A stretch of 64,000 nt of DNA, from assembly GCA_903886255.1 (NCBI GenBank), contig CAISLM010000014.1, forward strand, positions 13,562-77,561, in the 5' to 3' direction. The stretch comes from Candidatus Collierbacteria bacterium (lineage in GTDB: Bacteria; Patescibacteriota; Microgenomatia; UBA1400; MFAQ01). Each line of letters opens with the position of its first letter. The first letter of the stretch is position 1. Below the pieces are notes generated by a model that ran no database searches, was not told the DNA's origin, and saw nothing but the letters and a program-made list of their open reading frames with translations. The translations under genes were made by a program, and so were the position numbers. This document shows, piece after piece, positions 449 through 58,853 of this stretch.

Positions 449-1314
449 GATTTAAAACATATCGCCCCTTCCTTAATCCAGCTATAAGCGACAGTTCCGT
501 CTTGGAAAACAACCAGCTGGCGGACAAAATCTTTCTTGGGGTCATGCTTCGTCACATAGTCTGTTATCCTCACCAAAGTACCATTGTAATCATAAACACC
601 ACCACCCCAAACATGACCATGACAGAGAATTGCATTATTTTTTAACCAAAGTCTGATTCTAAATAGATTCCAACGAGAAGGCGTACTCTCGTTTCTACTA
701 TTGTCAGGATTTCCGATTGGCCATGAAGAAATATTTTCACAACCACAACTCTTCAATTTTTCAATAATATTCAAATACGATTCCGGAGTGTCAATTCCTC
801 CTTTTCTCAGGAGTACAGTGGCTCTACATTGCAAACCATGTTTCCGGATATTCTTAAATATTTCCTCATATTTTGGATATTTGGGAATTCCATATACGGA
901 AGCCTGATCCTTCTCCGAAATTTCATGTATAGATACGGCTATAGCTGTTAGCCCCAGATTCTTCCAAACTGGTAAATATTTATCGCAGAACTTCTCGTTT
1001 CCCAATAATATTCCATTCGTAAATAGATTTACATTGGTGAAATATGCTCCTTCTTTTGCAACGTCTTGGTAATCCTTCAAGGCGTTTGCAACCGCTATGG
1101 GCGAACAAGTTGGTTCACCACTACTTGTTAGTGATAGTGACCATCCACCATATCTTGCGGACAATCTGAGGGCGCTTTTGAAAGTACTCGGCATTAGATT
1201 GTCTGTAGGCGCTACCTTTTTTAACTCCTTCGCCGCACAGAAAGCACAATTTCCATTACATACATTACTACCGAGTAAGGCGCTAACACTGTAAATCTTT
1301 TCTATACAGGCCAT
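445..1314 (-). CDS. radical SAM domain protein (NrdG/QueE-like core, subtype unknown)
   Basis: N-terminal CNGNCAFC (CX3CX2C) radical-SAM cluster motif and a downstream SGEPT glycine-rich SAM motif. 289 aa. Divergent from nrdR. Confidence 0.7.
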   Translation of the reverse strand: MACIEKIYSVSALLGSNVCNGNCAFCAAKELKKVAPTDNLMPSTFKSALRLSARYGGWSLSLTSSGEPTCSPIAVANALKDYQDVAKEGAYFTNVNLFTNGILLGNEKFCDKYLPVWKNLGLTAIAVSIHEISEKDQASVYGIPKYPKYEEIFKNIRKHGLQCRATVLLRKGGIDTPESYLNIIEKLKSCGCENISSWPIGNPDNSRNESTPSRWNLFRIRLWLKNNAILCHGHVWGGGVYDYNGTLVRITDYVTKHDPKKDFVRQLVVFQDGTVAYSWIKEGAICFKS

Positions 1315-1446
1315 TTGTATATTAATTGATAACTAATAAATCTTAAAAACCCCTCGACAGAATTGGTACGACATCATCCATGTATAAAATTATAAAAAAT
1401 TAATAAAAACATCAATATCTTGACATTTATTTGTATAATCTTAAAT

Positions 1447-1899
1447 ATGAAATGTCCATTTTGTGATAGCGATCAATTGATCGTCACCAATTCCAGACCT
1501 ACGAATAATGAAATGGAAATTTGGCGGAGAAGAAAATGTCTTCATTGTGGTGGCTTGTTAACTACCCACGAGAAAATTGATCTATCTTTCATAACAGTGA
1601 TAAAAAGATCAGGCAAAAGAGTTAAATACAATCGTGCCAAATTATATTCAAGTATTTATCACGTTGTTTCCGCAACAAAGAAAATCGATAGGGGAACTGC
1701 CGGCGATATTTCAGAAAAACTAATGGAAAAGGCTGAAAAGGAAATAATAAACCTTAAAATAAGAGAATTAAGCTCAGAAACAATTTTTTTAATTGTCTCT
1801 GAAATACTCAAGAGTTCATATCCGGACAGCTTCTTGAGGTACGTCGCCTATTTTTCGAAATCAATCATCCCGAAAGATTTACTCCTCAGTGGGTTCTAG
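1447..1899 (+). CDS. nrdR: transcriptional repressor NrdR (zinc ribbon + ATP-cone)
   Basis: MKCPFCDS...CLHCGG zinc ribbon followed by an ATP-cone-like region. The ORF track begins at a TTG at 1420; the ATG at 1447 gives the canonical NrdR N-terminus. Confidence 0.85.
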   Translation: MKCPFCDSDQLIVTNSRPTNNEMEIWRRRKCLHCGGLLTTHEKIDLSFITVIKRSGKRVKYNRAKLYSSIYHVVSATKKIDRGTAGDISEKLMEKAEKEIINLKIRELSSETIFLIVSEILKSSYPDSFLRYVAYFSKSIIPKDLLLSGF

Positions 1900-2523
1900 A
1901 GAAAACTTTACACCCATGTCGTCCAACTCCTGAGATAATTTGTCGTTTTTTTCCTCAGTTGATAGCAGATGTATGTGCGCATCCGACAGGTGAACTGATT
2001 TTTGAAGTACTCTCGCGTGCAGTTGGCCGAAAAGTTCAACTACCCTTTTCATATCTTTTTTGTCGAGAGTCATCATGTAAGTATTGCCCTTTGTCCCAAA
2101 TTTATATTGCAAAGCCGCCATAGGATTAAGCATCAAAACCAAGAAAACTGTTGTTGCCGCAGGAATGTAAAAACCTGAACCAATCGCCACGCCTATTGCC
2201 GCAGTAGTCCAAATAGTAGCAGCGGTAGTCACTCCTGAAAGTCTATTTCCGTTTTTAAGAATAACTCCGGCACCCAAGAAACCGACTCCGGATACAATCT
2301 GCGCCATGATTCTTGTAGGGTCTTGCCCCAAAACACCCAAACTGTTGGCGACATAAATAGAAAGTCCTGCAAACAGCGCCGAGCCAACACAGACCAGCAT
2401 TTGGGTTCTAAGGCCGGCCACCTTTCCGCTTCTTTCTCTATCGTAACCAATAAGTATTCCTGCAAAAAAAGCTATTAGTAAACGGAAAGCTATCGTCATT
2501 TGGATAGAATAATCAATTACCAT
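1879..2523 (-). CDS. MgtC/SapB family membrane protein
   Basis: GLRTQMLVCVGSALF...SGVTTAATIWTTAAIGVAIGSG matches MgtC family signatures. Hydrophobic N-terminal half. Confidence 0.8.
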   Translation of the reverse strand: MVIDYSIQMTIAFRLLIAFFAGILIGYDRERSGKVAGLRTQMLVCVGSALFAGLSIYVANSLGVLGQDPTRIMAQIVSGVGFLGAGVILKNGNRLSGVTTAATIWTTAAIGVAIGSGFYIPAATTVFLVLMLNPMAALQYKFGTKGNTYMMTLDKKDMKRVVELFGQLHARVLQKSVHLSDAHIHLLSTEEKNDKLSQELDDMGVKFSLEPTEE

Positions 2524-2592
2524 AACAAAAGTTTACACTACTTGATAATTCGACTCAAACAATTGAAGATATGTAAGTAGTAACATAAATCA

Positions 2593-5500
2593 ATGCCAAA
2601 GTTTACCCACCTTCATGTCCATACGGAATTTTCACTTTTGGACGGTCTTTCCAAGATCGGTAAGCTTGTTGCCAAAACAAAAGAATTTGGTCAAACACAT
2701 TTGGCAATTACAGATCACGGCACAATGTATGGTGCGATAGAATTTTATAAAAAAGCTACAAAAGAGGGTATTGTACCCATCATAGGTTGCGAAGTATATC
2801 TGGCTAAAAAATCACGTTTCGATAAAGAAAAACAAGATGCCAATCACTTGATTCTTTTATCCGAAAACTTTGAGGGTTACCAAAACCTAATGAAAATTGT
2901 AACTACCGGTTTCATGGAGGGTTTCTATTACAAGCCAAGAATCGACAAAGAAACTCTTGAGAAATATTCGAAAGGAATAATTTGTGCAACAGCATGTCCG
3001 GCGGGAAGAGTCCAGAAACTTTTAATCGAAGACAATTACGAAGCCGCCAAAACAGAGCTTCAGGAATATGAACGAATTTTTGGTCCCGACAACGTTTTTG
3101 TAGAACTTCAACGGCACCATTACGACCGATACGCACAGCTGCCTTCGGTTCCGCCGGAAATAAAACCAAAACTTCTGGAAATGTATGATAACCAGATCAA
3201 GGGAGAAAAAGGACTTATTAAGTTGAGTCGAGAGCTGGGAATTCCCCTAATCGCCACCAACGACTCACACTATATTAACCAAGACGATGCGGCTGCCCAA
3301 GATGCTCTTGTCTGCGTCCAGTCGGGTAAAATGCTTTCCGACACAAATCGAATTCGATATATCGATACTCCGGATTTTTACTTAAAATCACCTGAGGAAA
3401 TGGCTGTCGAATTTGAAGATCTTCCTGAGGCTATCGAAAACACTCAAAAATTAGCTGATCGTTGTAAGGTTGAAATCGTAATTGGTCAATGGTATTTTCC
3501 CAAAATTAAAATCCCTGCAGGAAAAACTGCCGGAGAAACCCTAAGAGACATGGCTTATGGTGGTGCCAAAGAAAGGTTCCCCGAAATTACCGAAGATATT
3601 TCCAAACGTTTGGAATACGAGCTGGAAATAATTGAGAAGAAAGGATACTCACCTTACTTTTTACTTGAGTCCGGCATTGTTAATTATGCCGATGAAGTCG
3701 GTATCTACACAAATACTAGAGGTTCTGCGGCCGGCTCTCTAGTTTCTTATTGTTGTGGAATTACGACAGTCGATCCGCTTCGATTTAGACTTCCATTTGA
3801 GCGTTTTCTGAATCCTTTCCGTCCATCTCCTCCCGACATTGACCTTGATGTTGCTGATATCCATCGTGACGATCTCATCAGGTATCTCGCTAATACTTAC
3901 GGAAAAGAAAAAGTCGGTCAGATCTGTACCTTTGGGACAATGAAAGCTAGGGCTGCAGTTCGCGATATCGGTCGAGTCATGGGAATGCCATACTCAAAAG
4001 TAGATTTGATAAGCAAGACAATCCCTGAAGGTAGTCAAGGTTTCCCCATGACGCTAAAAAAAGCCCTAGAGACTACTCCGGAATTGAAAAAAATGAAAGA
4101 CAGCGACCCCGAAGTTAGCAAGCTTTTGGAAATGGCTCAGAAGGTGGAAAGCAATGCTCGCCATATTTCTGTTCATGCCGCTGCCGTTATCGTCGGCCCG
4201 GATGATTTAGTAAAATTTACTCCTTTGCAAAAAGAAACCGGTGGAGGTGAACGCATCATCACTCAATACGAAATGCATGCTTGTGAAGATGTAGGTTTAA
4301 TAAAGCTTGATATCTTAGGCATTTCCAATCTTACGATTCTCGCTAATGCCGTAAAAATTGTTGAAGCCATTCATAATGTCAAAATTCTGATTAAAAAGTT
4401 ACCCCTAGATGATAAAGAAACTTATGAAATGTTAGCTAGAGGTGAGACATTTGGTGTTTTTCAGATGGCCGGCGGGGGAATGACAAAATACCTAATGGAT
4501 CTTCACCCGGAAAGAATTGAAGATCTTATGGCCATGGTAGCATTGTATCGTCCCGGCCCCATGGGATCTATTCCGGAGTATATCGCTAGAAAAAGGGATC
4601 CAAAGTTAATTAAATACTTTGTTCCCGGTTTGGAAAATATTCTTGACATGTCATATGGAATCATCACTTATCAGGATGACGTTTTATTCATGGCAATTCA
4701 GCTCGCCGGATACAACTGGGAAGAAGCCGACAAATTTAGAAAAGCCATTGGTAAAAAGATTCCTGAGGAGATGGAGAAGCAACACTCAAAATTTGTTGAT
4801 GGTTGTGTTGAATTTAGTCATATCCCCCGTGACAAAGCTGAGGAATTGTTCAAACAAATAGAAACATTTGCAGCTTATGGATTCAACAAGGCTCACGCTG
4901 CTTCTTACGGAGTTGTTTCTTACTGGACTGCTTACGTGAAAGCTCATTATCCGGTTGAATATATGACCGCGCTAATGTCCGTTGAGGCAGCCGACACGGA
5001 CAAGGTAGTTACTGCGATAGGAGAATGTGAAAATCTTGGAATAAGAGTTCTTTCGCCGGACATAAACGAGTCCAGAACAGACTTTACGGTTATCGACCTG
5101 CCTGAAGATCAATGGTTGCCTGAAGGAAGAGCCAGGGATACAGGAAGAGCTATTCGTTTTGGTCTTTCAGCAATCAAAAATGTCGGCGAATCGGCAATCA
5201 CCGCGATTTTGTCGGCGAGAGACAAAGGCGATTTTAAATCTTTTACAGACTTCCTACGTCGTGTCGATCTATCAAAGGTGAATAAAAAAGTTGTCGAATC
5301 TCTTATCAAAGCGGGAGCTTTGGATCGTTGGGGAAACCGGGCACAACTTTTAGCTGCACTACCGATTATTCGCGACAATACAGTCAAGCTGCAAAAAGGC
5401 AAAGATGCCAGCCAGGTTAGTTTATTTGCTAATGTTGCCCACACTGAGGATACAACCGACAATCTGCCTGATATTCCCGAAATGCCGCTTGATGAAAAGT

Positions 5501-21925: not shown

Positions 21926-22636
21926 TTAAAATCCTCTAGCATCTCTAAGCGCCTTTATGTTCATTTGAATTCTCGTAAATGCGGTTACCGAACTGTATAA
22001 ATAAAATTTATTATTTTTTTTGGCATCAGAAGGCAAGTCTCTTGGCTTTGCATATATCCTCACCTTACCAATATCCAAAAGCATCAGATACCAACTTGAA
22101 TCAGCATTAACAACAATGTGAAATGGTCCGTCAGGCATTAGTTCAATGCCTGACTTATTTGCCAAATAGAGAATATTCTCCGCTTCTTCTTGAAGCATTT
22201 TTCGAGGGATCTTTACAAACTCCTTATCCATAGGAAAAGTATCCCTTACCTCGGAAGCATCGATCTTTTGATCATAAACACTGGTCACCTCGTCGGCAGA
22301 CAGGTTTGTTGTTGCTACAGTGTTATCATCGACTTTTCGAACAGTTGGGACGACAGTAAATCCACGTTCTCTTAAAGTCTTCCACGCCAAATCATAAGTA
22401 TCCGAGTATGAGAGCGATCTATCAAAGTCGAAACCGGTCAGAGTCGGCAAACAAAAATCTTCGACCTTTCTAGTTAGTACACTAGCTTTATGTTTTTCTC
22501 CAAGATCAAAATATATAAAACTTTTATTTTCTGCGGCTTGTCTTGTTTTTGGAATATGATATTCGAATCTAATAGGGAAAACCGACACTTTTTCCGGAAG
22601 TCCAAATTTTTTCAAATTTATTGATTTTTCTACCAT
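21926..22636 (-). CDS. hypothetical protein
   Basis: 236-aa ORF with no recognised motif. Tightly packed between hypC and ppdK. Confidence 0.45.
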   Translation of the reverse strand: MVEKSINLKKFGLPEKVSVFPIRFEYHIPKTRQAAENKSFIYFDLGEKHKASVLTRKVEDFCLPTLTGFDFDRSLSYSDTYDLAWKTLRERGFTVVPTVRKVDDNTVATTNLSADEVTSVYDQKIDASEVRDTFPMDKEFVKIPRKMLQEEAENILYLANKSGIELMPDGPFHIVVNADSSWYLMLLDIGKVRIYAKPRDLPSDAKKNNKFYLYSSVTAFTRIQMNIKALRDARGF

Positions 22637-29282: not shown

Positions 29283-29843
29283 ATGAAAAACAAATTGAAT
29301 ATATCAAAAGAACTAGAATATACACGAGAAGACTGGCTTCACTATTCTTACCATTTCCGAACTGCAACAAACTATGCCTATTTCCGTTGCTTTTTCTTTG
29401 GTTTTTTGACCCCCATGATTTTGGCCGGCCTCTTAACCAAACCCGATTTAAGTACTTTGTTTTATTCCTTGGTGTTTATCCTTATGATCTTTCCCGGACT
29501 TATCCTCACGCCAATCGTCTGGATAAAAAGTATGATTAAGAAACCGGAGAAAAAGGTTTATTCATTCGAATTCACCGAATCCTATTTAAGCTTTAAAAAA
29601 GGTGGAATCACCACTAAAATTATGTGGGAGGAATTTACGGGAAGGATTATCGAAGATAAATACGCCTTCGTATTTCTTCGTGAACGCTCTTATACATTAC
29701 CCAAAAGACTATTTACAGATCAAGAATGGCAAGATTTGATTCGGCTAATAACTGCCAAAGTAAATCCGAAGAAGCTCCCTACTATCGGTAAAAAAATTCT
29801 CTGGGTGTTGATCGGTTTGGCTCTACCCTTCCTTCTTCCGTAA
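29283..29843 (+). CDS. small membrane protein (YcxB-like architecture: 2 TM + cytosolic domain), unknown function
   Basis: Two hydrophobic helices (FFFGFLTPMILAGLL / LVFILMIFPGLILTPIVW), a soluble region, and a C-terminal TM segment. Confidence 0.45.
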   Translation: MKNKLNISKELEYTREDWLHYSYHFRTATNYAYFRCFFFGFLTPMILAGLLTKPDLSTLFYSLVFILMIFPGLILTPIVWIKSMIKKPEKKVYSFEFTESYLSFKKGGITTKIMWEEFTGRIIEDKYAFVFLRERSYTLPKRLFTDQEWQDLIRLITAKVNPKKLPTIGKKILWVLIGLALPFLLP

Positions 29844-29916
29844 CAAAAAACAGAAATACAAATTTCAAATTGTGACCCCGGCGGAATCCTCTCGGTAAAA
29901 TTCAGCTGAATTTTCC

Positions 29917-29975
29917 TCAAGACCTGGCTCGACAAGATCGTTACTAGCTTGTCTCCGCCCTTCGATTCCCTGCGT
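29917..29975. repeat. ~58-nt direct repeat, copy 1 (downstream of tRNA-Glu)
   Basis: AGACCTGGCTCGACAAGATCGTTACtAGCTTGTCTCCGCCcTTCgAtTCC. Near-identical to the copy at 30150..30208 (about 5 mismatches). Confidence 0.7.
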
Positions 29976-29982
29976 TTGACAA

Positions 29983-30012
29983 ATAAAAAAGGTTGGACTA
30001 GCCAACCATTTT
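29983..30012 (-). terminator. rho-independent terminator downstream of tRNA-Glu
   Basis: aaaaaaGGTTGGactagCCAACCattttt perfect 6-bp stem flanked by A/T runs; potentially bidirectional. Confidence 0.65.
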
Positions 30013-30018
30013 TACTTG

Positions 30019-30092
30019 TGATCCCGGCGGGAATCGAACCCGCGATATTCAGGATGAAAACCTGACGTCCTAGGCCGCTAGACGACGGGACC
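30019..30092 (-). tRNA. tRNA-Glu (anticodon TTC)
   Basis: Hand-folded cloverleaf: acceptor GGTCCCG/CGGGATC, D-stem GTCT/GGAC, anticodon stem TCAGG/CCTGA with loop TTTTCAT, T-arm GCGGG-TTCGATT-CCCGC, discriminator A. Confidence 0.85.
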
Positions 30093-30149
30093 AAATTTTA
30101 ACAAATACGATTTCCGAGGGACTTCTCAAAATAATTTTCTTCTGAAAAT

Positions 30150-30208
30150 TTTTTGAGACCTGGCTCGACAAGATCGTTACGAGCTTGTCTCCGCCTTTCA
30201 AGTCCACT
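30150..30208. repeat. ~58-nt direct repeat, copy 2 (downstream of tRNA-Lys)
   Basis: AGACCTGGCTCGACAAGATCGTTACgAGCTTGTCTCCGCCtTTCaAgTCC. Same spacing (~45-50 nt) from the tRNA 3' end as copy 1. Confidence 0.7.
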
Positions 30209-30256
30209 AAAAGATCATTATTAGTATTTTTACCGCTAGGTTAAAAATACTAATAG

Positions 30257-30330
30257 TGGGTCAGGTGGGACTTGAACCCACGACACCCTGCTTAAAAGGC
30301 AGGTGCTCTAACCGACTGAGCTACTGACCC
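30257..30330 (-). tRNA. tRNA-Lys (anticodon TTT)
   Basis: Acceptor GGGTCAG/CTGACCC, D-arm GCTC-AGTCGGTTA-GAGC, anticodon stem CCTGC/GCAGG with loop CTTTTAA, T-arm GTGGG-TTCAAGT-CCCAC. Confidence 0.85.
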
Positions 30331-30904: not shown

Positions 30905-31312
30905 CTAATTTGAATATCTCCGGCGCTGATTGGAGTTGGATTTGGATTTGCACAGAAAGCTGATGAAAGCAAATGCAAAGCCGATTAAAATTGCTTCCCA
31001 CCAGGCAGAGCTCAATATCCAAGGGACGCTGAGCTTGGCGATCCACAGGGAAGCAAGATATAAGCTGGCGTACTTGAAAACGCCTTCGATTATCCAGCCA
31101 ACCCATCCGGCGGTTAAACAAGACAAGGGCAGCGCGGCCAGCTCAATTAAAAATTTCACGCCCAATAGCAGCAAGTCGATCAGGCCCATGGCTAGAATCA
31201 CCAGGAAAGCAATCCAGAAAATATCGTTGCCGGGGAAGATCACAATCCAGCCGAGCAAGCTGAAGCCGAATAAAGCCAAAACAGTTAGTAAAAATTTCGC
31301 TAAACAACCCAT
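30905..31312 (-). CDS. small integral membrane protein, unknown
   Basis: Four hydrophobic helices. Preferred over the overlapping plus-strand ORFs, which are low complexity. Confidence 0.4.
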   Translation of the reverse strand: MGCLAKFLLTVLALFGFSLLGWIVIFPGNDIFWIAFLVILAMGLIDLLLLGVKFLIELAALPLSCLTAGWVGWIIEGVFKYASLYLASLWIAKLSVPWILSSAWWEAILIGFAFAFISFLCKSKSNSNQRRRYSN

Positions 31313-35147: not shown

Positions 35148-35795
35148 ATGAAGAAACAAATAATAATTACATTCTCATTAATACTCTTAGGAGTAATTAG
35201 CTACCCAAAGTTAGCCAATGCCGCCGTACTTTCTCCTACAGCCGTAGCAATCCCGCTTAGGAGGGCTGAGATCAAAGTAGCTCTCAAAAAAACTAATGCC
35301 ATAAAGGAAATTGATCGGAGATTGGCTAGTTTAACTAACATAACAACACGAATAAACGGGATTACCAGAATAACAGACGCCCAAAAACAAAGCTTGTTGA
35401 CACAGGTCCAGAACGAAATAAATAATCTCAATGATTTAAAAACTAAAATTCAAGCCGAGACTGATGCCACAGCTCTCCAAGCCGAAAAAACTTCTATCGT
35501 CCAGTCTTATCGCGTTTACGCCTTATTCGTCCCAGAAATAGAAATAATTGCTCAAGCAGACAAAATTATGGATATTGCAGACGCGATGTCGAGTAAAACC
35601 ACCGACGCCACGCTACTCAGCAAAATCGCAGACGCAAAATCAAAGGCACAAAATGCAATAGATTTAGTTTTGCCACTTACACCCGAAGGATATCCTGGCA
35701 ATAGATCCGTTCTTCTATCCGCAAGAGATACCCTAAAGACAGCCCGAGTCAATTTAACCGGATCTTTTGCTTTACTAAAGGCAAACAGCAAATAA
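35148..35795 (+). CDS. secreted coiled-coil protein, unknown
   Basis: Signal peptide (LILLGVISYPKLANA), then helical heptad-like A/K/Q/T-rich sequence. Confidence 0.45.
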   Translation: MKKQIIITFSLILLGVISYPKLANAAVLSPTAVAIPLRRAEIKVALKKTNAIKEIDRRLASLTNITTRINGITRITDAQKQSLLTQVQNEINNLNDLKTKIQAETDATALQAEKTSIVQSYRVYALFVPEIEIIAQADKIMDIADAMSSKTTDATLLSKIADAKSKAQNAIDLVLPLTPEGYPGNRSVLLSARDTLKTARVNLTGSFALLKANSK

Positions 35796-57356: not shown

Positions 57357-58853
57357 ATGGACACGCAAGAAATCAACCTTATCCCGGCAGATCAAGCATT
57401 AGATAGTCAAAGAGACGAAGGTTTGCCCAGATCGGCTGAGGAAAAAAATGCTTTGCTGGAAAGGCAATATAACGACGGATTAGACACTGCGGCAAAAAAT
57501 AGTTTGCTGGAAATCGGGATTAACCCGGACGACAACGGACGATTTTCGCCAGAAACTTTTACCTTTGTTAGGAGAATTCTCAAGGAGCGCACAACTCCAT
57601 CAAAGCGAGGGAAACAATATTTGGCATCTGATTCACATTCAAAACGAATTGCCAATCTTATGTACCCATCTATAAAAACTGAGGATCCAAAAACTAAAAA
57701 AAGGTATGACAACTTCGTAACAAATGAAAGAATAATTTTGGAAGAAGGTCATCCCAACAAAAAAATAATAGAGATTCATTATGGTGCAGGAGAAACCGAT
57801 AAAGATTTGGAATTTATTGACCAAATTATTTCTGACCCAGAAAGTTTTGTGAAGGAAACTCTTGGAATTAACAGGCGGATTGGCGAACCATTAGAGTTAA
57901 GTTTAAATCTACGTTATCCCGCTGACATACCCCAAAATGAAAATGTTTTGCGGGAAATCAAAGAAAAAATAGAAGAAAATTCCAAAGATAAATTTAAGAT
58001 TTCTTTAGATTTATCTGTAAAAAATTTACCTTTCACTACTGAACAAATAAAAAAACTTGATGGGGTGATTGATAAACACAAAAAGGAGGTTGGAAGACAT
58101 CCATCTGAACAATATCTGGAAATAAGAGAAGCATCAGTTCGGAATGTTGTCGAAAATATATTAAGTGAACTTCCTGAAACATCAACCCTTTCAAAACTAA
58201 TTAAAATGGACTCCGATTTTGTCATCAAACAGATATATGAAAGTGTCAAAAACTATAAAGGCGGCAACCTCGAAGAAGCCATGGGATACGTTTTTGAGGC
58301 TGCGGTTGCAATTGAAATGAGAGATAACGTCTTTGACGATCAAATGTCCGAATTAATCTGGGGTGCGATGAATGCCAACAAATCAGCCAAAGGAGGAATC
58401 CTGGACCTCACCAGTTCAGACTTTAGAACCCTAAACAGTGAATATCAAAAGTATATGTCTGCTCACTGGTTAGGCCATGGCGACTTCGTTATTGATGAAA
58501 AAATTGCCGGAATTCCTACTGTCACAGCAATAATCGAATGTAAGGTTTCACCAAATGAACACATGCAGGATAGCGTAAGAGGTCAGATTTTAAACGAACT
58601 GGCAAATGTTCAGAAATTTATAGATAAGCACAGTGAAACCGGAAAAGGTGAACTAAGAACACTTTCGGAAAAAGATCTAAGAGTGATAGTCATAAGGCCG
58701 TTACCTGCAGGAAAGGACAATATTCCTAAAAACAGAATGGTCGGTTCAGAAATACTGGGCTCAAGTGTGGTCACAACAATCAGATCAGCAATTTCAACCG
58801 AGGATATGAACATCGTTCGCAAATACATGGGGGGGATCGAGCCGGCGGCTTAA
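57357..58853 (+). CDS. hypothetical 498-aa protein with candidate C-terminal PD-(D/E)xK nuclease-like core
   Basis: No TM or signal. Acidic/Lys-rich helical N-half. In the C-half, ...GYVFEAAVAIE...GGILDLT...HGDFVIDEK-x15-IIECKVS fits helix-E / beta-D / beta-ExK spacing. Confidence 0.5.
   Translation: MDTQEINLIPADQALDSQRDEGLPRSAEEKNALLERQYNDGLDTAAKNSLLEIGINPDDNGRFSPETFTFVRRILKERTTPSKRGKQYLASDSHSKRIANLMYPSIKTEDPKTKKRYDNFVTNERIILEEGHPNKKIIEIHYGAGETDKDLEFIDQIISDPESFVKETLGINRRIGEPLELSLNLRYPADIPQNENVLREIKEKIEENSKDKFKISLDLSVKNLPFTTEQIKKLDGVIDKHKKEVGRHPSEQYLEIREASVRNVVENILSELPETSTLSKLIKMDSDFVIKQIYESVKNYKGGNLEEAMGYVFEAAVAIEMRDNVFDDQMSELIWGAMNANKSAKGGILDLTSSDFRTLNSEYQKYMSAHWLGHGDFVIDEKIAGIPTVTAIIECKVSPNEHMQDSVRGQILNELANVQKFIDKHSETGKGELRTLSEKDLRVIVIRPLPAGKDNIPKNRMVGSEILGSSVVTTIRSAISTEDMNIVRKYMGGIEPAA

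Follow-up and report, generated by a model that had tools for sequence, protein, structure and literature searches.

Two tRNA genes in a 64-kb stretch of a Candidatus Collierbacteria contig (CAISLM010000014.1; the whole stretch of 64,000 nucleotides is called the window below) are each followed by a copy of a non-coding repeat that folds as a three-way junction and is bordered by segments of the very tRNA gene behind which it lies. The repeat has a constant architecture in which the cognate tRNA is represented by both a direct and an inverted segment, its stems covary, it is dispersed behind many tRNA genes of related bacteria, and its presence at a given tRNA is polymorphic. We see about an even chance that each repeat is a miniature, non-coding, structured insertion element specific for tRNA genes which, having no protein gene of its own, would need an enzyme encoded elsewhere.

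Two repeat copies behind tRNA-Lys and tRNA-Glu

The window is ordinary chromosome with 40% G+C from a Collierbacteria-like member of the Microgenomates, and carries ruvC, ruvA, ruvB, dnaE, genes of glycolysis and uvrA/uvrB. Only housekeeping genes were found in its 64 kb, and none for an integrase, a transposase or a reverse transcriptase. Along the minus strand the locus reads tRNA-Lys(UUU), an AT-rich hairpin, copy 1 of the repeat, tRNA-Glu(UUC), a GGTTGG/CCAACC hairpin with a T-run, and copy 2, beyond which a convergent gene ends at 29843. The features of the two units, in this order, are as follows.

30256..30330, minus strand: tRNA-Lys(UUU), complete, no CCA encoded, host gene of unit 1 (ARAGORN; Rfam tRNA model, 77.4 bits)
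30216..30258, minus strand: hairpin H of unit 1, AT-rich, no strong T-run (inverted-repeat search; not scored as a terminator)
30117..30207, minus strand: element copy 1, three-way junction (covariance model, 95.6 bits; fold z = -3.8)
30197-30207, minus strand: copy 1, strand of P1 antisense to the T-arm (copy 1 fold)
30161-30195, minus strand: copy 1, P2, GGC-GGA-GACAAG-loop-CTTGTC-GA-GCC (copy 1 fold)
30125-30157, minus strand: copy 1, P3 (copy 1 fold)
30118-30124, minus strand: copy 1, 3' strand of P1, the truncated tRNA-Lys remnant AAGTCC(C) (copy 1 fold)
30018..30092, minus strand: tRNA-Glu(UUC), complete, host gene of unit 2 (ARAGORN; Rfam tRNA model, 61.3 bits)
29985..30007, minus strand: hairpin H of unit 2, GGTTGG-CTAGT-CCAACC then TTTTTT, terminator-like (terminator scan, 29991-30007; sequence)
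29881..29971, minus strand: element copy 2, three-way junction (covariance model, 95.4 bits; fold)
29961-29973, minus strand: copy 2, strand antisense to the T-arm (copy 2 fold)
29926-29959, minus strand: copy 2, P2 (copy 2 fold)
29889-29921, minus strand: copy 2, P3 (copy 2 fold)
29883-29888, minus strand: copy 2, 3' strand of P1, GATTCC (copy 2 fold)
29871..29888, minus strand: second direct copy of the tRNA-Glu 3' end, GATTCCGCCGGGGTCACA, from T-loop position 57 to just past the discriminator (sequence)

A direct-repeat search returned a single family with two copies of 92 nt (29878-29969 and 30114-30205), which lie 236 nt apart, are 76% identical and differ at only one base in their central 41 nt. 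The 24-mer core of the repeat occurs exactly twice in the 64 kb, even when three mismatches are allowed, against a chance expectation of 0; chance similarity of the two copies is thereby excluded. The covariance model described below also has exactly two matches in the window. Behind copy 2 the tRNA-Glu 3' end is found again as GATTCCGCCGGGGTCACA, which is one deletion and one substitution apart from the GATTCCCGCCGGGATCACA of the gene.

An earlier sequence-only reading of this DNA had placed tRNA-Glu and tRNA-Lys on the minus strand, in which ARAGORN and Rfam agree with it, and had noticed a pair of direct repeats some 45-50 nt behind them; the repeats start 48 nt 3' of tRNA-Lys and 46 nt 3' of tRNA-Glu. 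The length of about 58 nt given there for the repeat is too short, since each copy, real as it is, extends to about 91 nt with the three-way-junction fold. The internal hairpin GACAAG...CTTGTC flanked by GGC...GCC was seen correctly and is found in both copies. Both hairpins described behind the tRNAs are likewise real, the AT-rich one having arms of 17 nt each (30216-30232 / 30242-30258) that are 94% complementary; the term terminator suits the hairpin of tRNA-Glu but not that of tRNA-Lys, which was not scored as one. The full extent of about 91 nt, the compensatory outer stem and the near-copy of the tRNA-Glu 3' end behind copy 2 had escaped that reading.

The element is dispersed behind tRNA genes of related bacteria

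Loci of relatives (all sampled loci are numbered here with an L) were gathered via RuvC homologues 72-100% identical to the RuvC of the window. In these the element lies between tRNA-Lys and tRNA-Glu and/or behind tRNA-Glu, with stems that have changed in sequence yet remain paired. A degenerate pattern scan of metagenome contigs gave 97 loci, about a quarter of them chance matches in GC-rich DNA, and the remaining ones lie 57-71 nt 3' of many kinds of tRNA on the same strand. A covariance model built from 48 copies was then run on the window and 99 loci and gave 110 matches, 87 of them distinct. Most of these copies (59 of the 87) begin within 80 nt behind a tRNA on the same strand, and 19 anticodons and 15 amino acids are represented, all on Microgenomates-like contigs; six other copies stand in tandem behind another element, eight at contig ends and 14 in other contexts. 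Several contigs hold 3-5 copies, and the element is borne by 60 of the 128 tRNAs in the sampled loci, a sample biased towards it.

Scans of viral contigs gave no match to the specific pattern, and a looser pattern gave 13 matches, none of which folds like the element; blastn searches against phage and plasmid collections gave no match to it either. The pattern GGCGGAGACN{17,23}GTCGAGCCAGGTC was also scanned against a collection of representative genomes that does not contain the genome of the window, and its 13 matches were all discarded as chance hits in GC-rich actinobacterial coding DNA. No description of the element was found in the literature, the coverage of which was incomplete, so that an earlier description is possible.

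The sequence-only reading had offered three options, namely a duplicated unit, a conserved processing or regulatory element, and an att-like integration element, with the caveat that the repeat might be a duplication confined to this locus. The opposite is found: relatives conserve the element and have it scattered behind at least 19 kinds of tRNA, and the simple local duplication is rejected. The att-like option comes nearest of the three, because each copy has a direct repeat of the 3' end of its cognate tRNA, although the object is a complete, strongly covarying structured module and not just an att site. A processing or regulatory element is still a live rival, and the Rfam comparison proposed there returned no family for the element.

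The fold is conserved by compensatory changes

Each copy in the window folds as a three-way junction with a closing stem P1, a long irregular hairpin P2 and a variable hairpin P3. P2 consists of a G-N-C segment, a GGA/GA internal loop, 5-6 base pairs and a UCGURACGA tip. Between the two copies P1 differs in a compensatory manner, GGACUU/AAGUCC in copy 1 versus GGAAUC/GAUUCC in copy 2, and P3 differs in sequence while keeping the same shape. Among unpaired nucleotides the GGA/GA of P2, a GG in the P2-P3 junction, a bulged A in P3 and the UCGURACGA tip are nearly invariant.

Covariation was measured on a model-guided alignment of 86 distinct rows with 500 shuffles, the alignment being fitted to the model and the sequences being related. 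Standard pairs fill 90.2% of the cells versus 66.5% in the shuffles, cells with double changes number 596 versus 187, and none of the 500 shuffles attained the covariation score of 0.626 (0.218 in shuffles). This score falls to 0.08-0.14 when the 3' partners are slid by 1-3 columns. The middle pair of P2a occurs in all four Watson-Crick combinations (G-C 24, U-A 24, A-U 20, C-G 14). RNAalifold, applied to an independent MAFFT alignment, recovered P2 and P3, with double changes in 17 of 19 pairs.

In P3, G-U pairs outnumber A-C pairs by 26 to 5, the counts in P2b are 6 and 6, and those in P1 were too noisy for use. The conserved non-Watson-Crick motifs (GGA/GA, tandem GA and the bulged A) are purine-rich on the tRNA-sense strand. 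Judged from these sequence patterns, the folded strand is favoured to be the tRNA-sense one, which is compatible with RNA and single-stranded DNA alike.

Rfam holds no family that matches the element at gathering thresholds, and only chance-level matches appear at E <= 10; the related loci likewise gave none. With the tRNA model (RF00005, 29 bits) or ARAGORN only the two real tRNAs are called, and the element is not, even at E <= 10; its tRNA-derived parts comprise only the last 7-18 nt and the first 12 nt. Three other interpretations were tried and rejected. A hammerhead reading of CUGACGGA in L015 fails because its bases covary within the P2a helix (GAC/GUC versus GGC/GCC). A tRNA-like cloverleaf or minihelix has no tRNA model match, and the acceptor part of the tRNA remnant has no partner inside the unit. 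A promoter for tRNA-Glu lacks a convincing -35/-10 pair, and copy 2 has no gene downstream.

The unit carries a direct and an antisense segment of its cognate tRNA

The repeat is the core of a non-coding unit of about 115-150 nt (roughly 135) without an open reading frame (ORF). A complete tRNA is followed by an A-run and a hairpin, usually with a T-run after it; a spacer of about 10-15 nt then leads to a stretch antisense to the tRNA, behind which lie the P2/P3 core and a direct copy of the 3' end of the same tRNA, here also called the remnant. The 59 tRNA-linked copies share this arrangement. This direct copy is 18-23 nt long and ends 1-3 nt beyond the discriminator. It starts at tRNA position 57 in 27 of 59 cases, at position 56 in eight and at position 54 in four, intact copies end at positions 74-76 (26 copies), and exact identity to the gene reaches 23 nt. 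For the tRNA-His of L078 and the tRNA-Gly of L105 the gene encodes CCA and the direct copy stops at position 74. In the window copy 1 retains only AAGTCC(C) of tRNA-Lys, as do most copies in Lys-Glu spacers, and L022 keeps all 18 nt.

The antisense stretch, of 12-14 nt, is the reverse complement of positions 53/54-65 of the same tRNA, that is, of the T-loop and the 3' strand of the T-stem, and it pairs with the downstream tRNA copy to close the three-way junction. It matches its cognate tRNA in a mean of 10.5 of 12 positions versus 8.6 of 12 for non-cognate tRNAs. Opposite T-loop positions 54-56 it reads GAA for TTC in 46 of 52 cases, GGA or GGG for TCC in 5 of 6, and GAG for CTC in the single case. 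Positions 54-56 are usually missing from the downstream copy, and the antisense nucleotides that correspond to them are therefore unpaired in the three-way-junction fold.

Some of the T-loops concerned are non-canonical, with C in place of U at position 55 (TCCGAnT in L086, L093, L105, L107, L126 and L050) or CUC at positions 54-56 (CTCAACA in the tRNA-Trp of L037), and the antisense stretch follows them.

Filled and empty sites, arrays and an inverted variant

Relatives of the window carry one, both or neither of its two units. In L020, L021 and L098 tRNA-Lys and tRNA-Glu are 1 nt apart, so the site of unit 1 is empty there. The window has unit 2, as do L015, L020, L098 and L121; L016, L018, L022 and L023 lack it. 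A search by downstream flanks for pairs of filled and empty alleles found only the diverged empty Lys-Glu sites. In two of these (L020:4652-4803 and L021:4298-4449) the tRNA-Lys gene encodes CCA, L098 being known from alignment coordinates only; most tRNA-Lys genes ahead of the element end in ...CAC followed by A/T-rich sequence.

Tandem arrays occur in L061, L064, L105, L114 and L056. The two units of L121 share a private 6-nt insertion, so this array was formed by unequal crossing-over between the repeats. Remnants are nested or interrupted in L098, L054, L042, L070 and L071, and orphan copies, whose remnant does not match the neighbouring tRNA or which have no adjacent tRNA, are found in L093, L113, L064 and L069.

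An inverted variant is present in L054, L058 and L063, which are orthologous loci. It keeps the P2 core, has a P1 that is not tRNA-derived, and is oriented opposite to the adjoining tRNA-Arg(CCG); it is followed by a 37-nt duplicate which runs from the anticodon loop to the end of the tRNA. Short or long, the repeat thus always stretches from a loop of the tRNA through to the gene end, like integrase attachment sites; by analogy, elements that exchange the 3' part of a gene on entering it follow this logic. A fixed 18-nt duplication by staggered cuts was considered as another source of the repeat, and is weakened by this variant, which starts in the anticodon loop yet ends at the same tRNA end.

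Terminator strength and a predicted alternative fold of the locus

The repeat itself sits 3' of the hairpin and is not a terminator. The T-run after the hairpin has a median of 5 in terminal units versus 2-4 between tRNA-Lys and tRNA-Glu (Mann-Whitney p = 2e-4, for samples that are not phylogenetically independent), and hairpins ahead of tRNA-Glu have short T-runs in 10 of 10 distinct loci. These sequences are consistent with a terminator disarmed where the downstream tRNA still needs expression, and the loss of the T-run implies that the unit is transcribed inside the Lys-Glu precursor.

In the predicted minimum-energy fold of tRNA-Glu with unit 2, a helix of 12-13 bp, in which the antisense stretch is paired to the gene's T-loop and the 3' strand of its T-stem, encloses hairpin H, while the 5' strands of the T-stem and of the acceptor stem pair with the downstream copy. 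In this prediction the second 3' end closes a cloverleaf; the unit forms a structured insertion within it at 56/57, and the two repeat copies come to lie next to each other at a junction. Such a fold, with the acceptor 5' strand paired to the downstream copy, is the predicted minimum in 34 of 34 loci with intact repeats; the count comes from unconstrained folding, and a constrained-energy comparison, inconsistent in its absolute values, was not used. The helix between antisense stretch and T-arm is predicted with DNA parameters too. That the antisense stretch tracks positions 54-56 is explained by this fold, in which it pairs with the T-loop. The Lys-Glu precursor of the window, with its truncated remnant, is predicted to fold as two tRNAs, a hairpin and a three-way junction. 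These predictions are thermodynamic only, and the ordinary tRNA would have the advantage once folding during transcription, termination at the hairpin and tRNA processing come into play.

Other repeats and genes in the sampled loci

The Microgenomates loci that hold the element also contain another non-coding repeat, dispersed and 350-510 nt long. This one has a T-loop-like end, ...AAGTTCGAATTTCGTTATAAC, and no Rfam match, and was seen at L047:1340-1850, L069:5590-5940, three places in L094, and in L074, L118, L127, L085, L068, L099/L083, L114, L056 and L058. In L069, L074, L094 and L064 this longer repeat takes the place of the tRNA ahead of hairpin, element and remnant, the remnant being a tRNA-Gln 3' end in L069, L074 and L094; in L047 it adjoins a gene for an IS200-like transposase.

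A perfect 20-nt palindrome, CCTGCCTGCCGGCAGGCAGG, occurs at eight sites, four of them distinct (L076:2197, L086:4925, L047:1772 and L083:2960) and the others in the duplicate loci L109, L112, L046 and L099. It splits the tRNA remnant just after its T-loop part in units of tRNA-Tyr and tRNA-Arg, is also present within the 500-nt repeat, and may be another tiny insertion sequence. Inserts of about 20 nt that end in CAGGC and resemble this palindrome split remnants in L042 and L054.

Just 3' of tRNAs or remnants a conserved GC-rich motif, GCGCCCGCCCACGC[AG]CGGAGCGATG, recurs (L023:1729, L068:4928, L085:2247, L094:10/11183/12919, L115:3464, L118 on the minus strand, and L127:4963). In L063 and L054 the duplicated 3' half of tRNA-Arg(CCG) is immediately followed by a tandem array of 5-11 copies of the octamer CAAGAACT. 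In L113 an island of 4.6 kb (470-5050) lies between tRNA-His and the element, whose antisense stretch still matches the unusual TTCAAGT T-loop; besides fragments of IS256-like transposases, the island encodes a methyltransferase, a NUDIX protein, a glycosyltransferase and a polyprenyl synthetase-like protein.

Genes for IS200-like Y1 transposases (PF01797) lie at L071:262-880 and L047:1903-2331. The one in L071 has hairpins of its own, CCCCGCACA...TGTGCGGGG, on either side and interrupts the second tandem unit behind tRNA-Lys(CUU). In the window, ORFs without a Pfam match at the thresholds used lie at 30905-31312 (minus strand), 35148-35795 (plus), 57357-58853 (plus) and 21926-22636 (minus); one of them sits between ruvC and ruvA, where L014 and L015 have an unannotated gene of 131-132 amino acids.

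Discussion

We propose that the element inserts into the T-loop of a tRNA gene, between positions 56 and 57, by the same logic as phages and islands that integrate into tRNA genes. It would bring a replacement tRNA 3' end together with a terminator hairpin and displace the original 3' end downstream, so that the tRNA gene would stay functional. The antisense stretch would span the crossover, with 3-4 nt to the left and 9 nt to the right, and may recognise the target gene by base pairing while folded as a single strand of DNA or of RNA; it may also let the locus refold and so unite the two repeat copies for precise excision. Another part of the genome would provide the enzyme for the chemistry, be it a recombinase, a transposase or a reverse transcriptase. 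In the window, unit 1 would have split tRNA-Lys from tRNA-Glu, which lie 1 nt apart in relatives, and unit 2 would have taken its place behind tRNA-Glu.

A bolder version, about which we are rather doubtful, would make these units a mobile nucleic acid of a new, self-guided class or else a ribozyme-like RNA of a new, tRNA-linked kind. A self-guided unit of about 135 nt would find the T-arm of one tRNA through its own antisense segment of 12-14 nt, which spans the insertion point, the locus would form a four-way junction at which the two repeat copies meet, and the unit would be cut out and reinserted as a small circle of single-stranded RNA or DNA, leaving a working tRNA behind. It would resemble a bacterial T-loop 'intron' with a spare 3' exon and a terminator.

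Several points weigh against an insertion element. There is no enzyme candidate, as the 64-kb window has housekeeping genes only, and IS200-like transposases are near only 2 of about 75 loci, each with end hairpins of its own; on account of this rarity and of these separate hairpins the IS200-like TnpA was rejected as the mobilising enzyme. The sampled contigs yielded neither a full-length autonomous relative nor a near-identical pair of filled and empty alleles, and no excised form was found in them, circle junctions being a matter of read-level data. Copies that look orthologous, in the Lys-Glu spacer and in the Arg(CCG) variant of L054, L058 and L063, keep their fold by compensatory changes, which fits a host-level function at least as well as selfish mobility. 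Some tandem arrays, as in L121, come from unequal crossing-over and not from reinsertion. With a tRNA 3' end carried by the element itself, switching among 19 kinds of tRNA would need an extra step. Finally, the loci were selected for the element, which biases the frequencies.

The main alternative, which we hold to be possible at clearly less than an even chance, is a host-functional structured RNA linked to tRNAs, possibly a domesticated element, transcribed with the tRNA or just after it. Its junction and invariant nucleotides would serve to bind a protein, or else would act on the cognate tRNA, for instance in 3'-end processing, in quality control, by sequestering or mimicking the T-arm and 3' half, or as an alternative 3' end, and its tRNA-derived parts would be functional determinants by which every copy stays matched to its tRNA. 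In favour of such an RNA, copies at one genomic position have evolved by compensatory changes across genomes with RuvC 72-100% identical to that of the window, unpaired nucleotides in P2, the P2-P3 junction and P3 are nearly invariant, and the GA-type motifs and the 26 to 5 excess of G-U in P3 point to a fold of the tRNA-sense strand. Transcription within the precursor, implied by the lost T-runs of the Lys-Glu hairpins, points the same way, as does the presence of the element at 60 of 128 sampled tRNAs; the antisense stretch, moreover, tracks T-loop positions that lack a partner in cis. A host function fits less well with the patchy presence at the same tRNA among close relatives and with truncated, nested and orphan copies. 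The acceptor part of the repeat has been lost from most Lys-Glu copies while the fold was kept, the closing stem of the inverted variant is not tRNA-derived, and an element in terminal position behind a strong terminator would rarely be transcribed. The insertion element and the host RNA are not mutually exclusive.

It is improbable, in our judgement, that the repeats are decaying scars of phages or islands with tyrosine integrases, in which an internal deletion has fused attL and attR and the conserved sequence represents sites for integrase and accessory proteins with no role as a folded strand. The direct repeats do begin in the T-loop or the anticodon loop and extend to the end of the tRNA, both loops being classical attachment sublocations in tRNA genes, and L023 has a serine recombinase gene beside tRNA-Glu as L113 has its 4.6-kb island between tRNA-His and the element. 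Scars are nevertheless unlikely because the hairpins covary: DNA bound by proteins would have neither covariation in all four Watson-Crick combinations nor stems that are variable and always paired. The same unit of roughly 115 nt is found at 19 kinds of tRNA with no intermediate series of deletions, no integrase adjoins any sampled copy examined, and phage, viral and plasmid collections hold no match.

We consider it very improbable that the unit is an intron-like insertion acting at the RNA level. In that model the downstream 3' end would close the tRNA fold of the transcript, with the unit inserted at 56/57. Self-cleavage and ligation, or else a host enzyme, would then release the unit, possibly as a small RNA circle, which could reinsert via its antisense guide. 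The alternative fold that is the predicted minimum at all 34 loci with intact repeats corresponds to this, as do an antisense stretch that spans the 56/57 junction, invariant junction nucleotides such as those of small ribozymes, and a G-U bias that favours the tRNA-sense strand. Splicing is not needed, however, since the upstream tRNA is already complete, and the terminator hairpin comes before the core. Rfam gave no match to a ribozyme or intron family even at E <= 10, no reverse transcriptase is nearby, and the thermodynamic prediction ignores co-transcriptional folding and processing.

A recent tandem duplication or chance similarity confined to this locus, suggested by two copies 236 nt apart in the same orientation with nearly identical cores, is refuted by the two occurrences of the 24-mer core where 0 are expected, by the 87 distinct copies in other contigs, by compensatory differences in P1 and P3 between the window copies, and by relatives that carry one, both or neither.

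If the units are insertion elements of tRNA genes, they would be a previously unrecognised and abundant component of the genomes of the candidate phyla radiation, which are very small and have little non-coding DNA; about half of the tRNA genes in the element-biased sample are occupied. They would also be the smallest known elements that target tRNA genes while preserving them. The antisense copy of the target suggests that the T-arm is found by pairing, which would make the element programmable in the way of bridge RNAs, IS200/IS605 guides and group II introns. The covarying three-way junction with its invariant unpaired nucleotides is a candidate for a new RNA family, for which 87 sequences are in hand. 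Such units account for duplicated tRNA 3' fragments and enlarged tRNA spacers, and are worth masking or annotating in metagenome-assembled genomes.

Comparison with known systems

Prophages and islands integrated in tRNA genes share with the element the repeat of the tRNA 3' part from a loop to the end of the gene, an intact gene, repeated or tandem occupation and variable presence. As between attL and attR, a direct repeat of the tRNA 3' segment flanks the insert, starting at position 57 in 27 of 59 cases and reaching 23 nt. The element differs in its length of about 115-150 nt with no ORF for an integrase or any other protein, in the occupation of at least 19 tRNAs by one core, in being constrained as a folded strand and not as protein-binding arms, and in carrying an antisense copy of the target T-arm.

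Integron attC sites and the attP of CTX phages are also non-coding, of about 60-140 nt, recognised by structure over sequence, rebuilt by an inverted repeat as a target-like duplex, and served by an enzyme in trans. The element has neither the attC boxes RYYYAAC / GTTRRRY (its consensus is GGGAYUCGAA ... GARUCCC, with no GTTRRRY on the 3' side) nor a cassette array, and no integron integrase is encoded in the window; it targets a tRNA gene and has a three-way junction with invariant unpaired nucleotides.

Derivatives of IS200/IS605 and REP/REPIN sequences (Y1/HUH) resemble it as short, non-autonomous, multicopy hairpins with guide nucleotides that pair with a site and precise excision as a single strand. 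They make no target duplication, have two similar end hairpins and no link to tRNA, whereas H, P2 and P3 of the unit are dissimilar and Y1_Tnp (PF01797) was found only in L047/L046 and L071. Nor does the unit resemble a miniature inverted-repeat transposable element (MITE): no inverted repeat joins its ends, its duplication of 18-23 nt is tRNA-specific, and its sole inverted repeat is that between the tRNA T-arm and the internal antisense stretch.

Non-canonical introns and split or permuted tRNA genes of archaea and red algae offer an interruption at T-loop position 56/57, and the alternative fold of our loci is likewise an insertion between tRNA parts. Here the host is bacterial, the upstream gene is complete and the insert brings a duplicate 3' exon with a terminator; no bulge-helix-bulge motif was identified and, to our knowledge, no splicing endonuclease is known in these bacteria, no search aimed at either having been made.

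The element thus lacks the defining marks of the integrated islands, the attC sites, the Y1-mobilised hairpin elements and the MITEs, having no integrase, attC boxes, terminal inverted repeats or associated Y1 transposase, and it has no Rfam model. By analogy, it would work most like the islands that integrate into tRNA genes, and it also appears similar to the sites recognised as folded strands and to the hairpin elements that bear their own guides.

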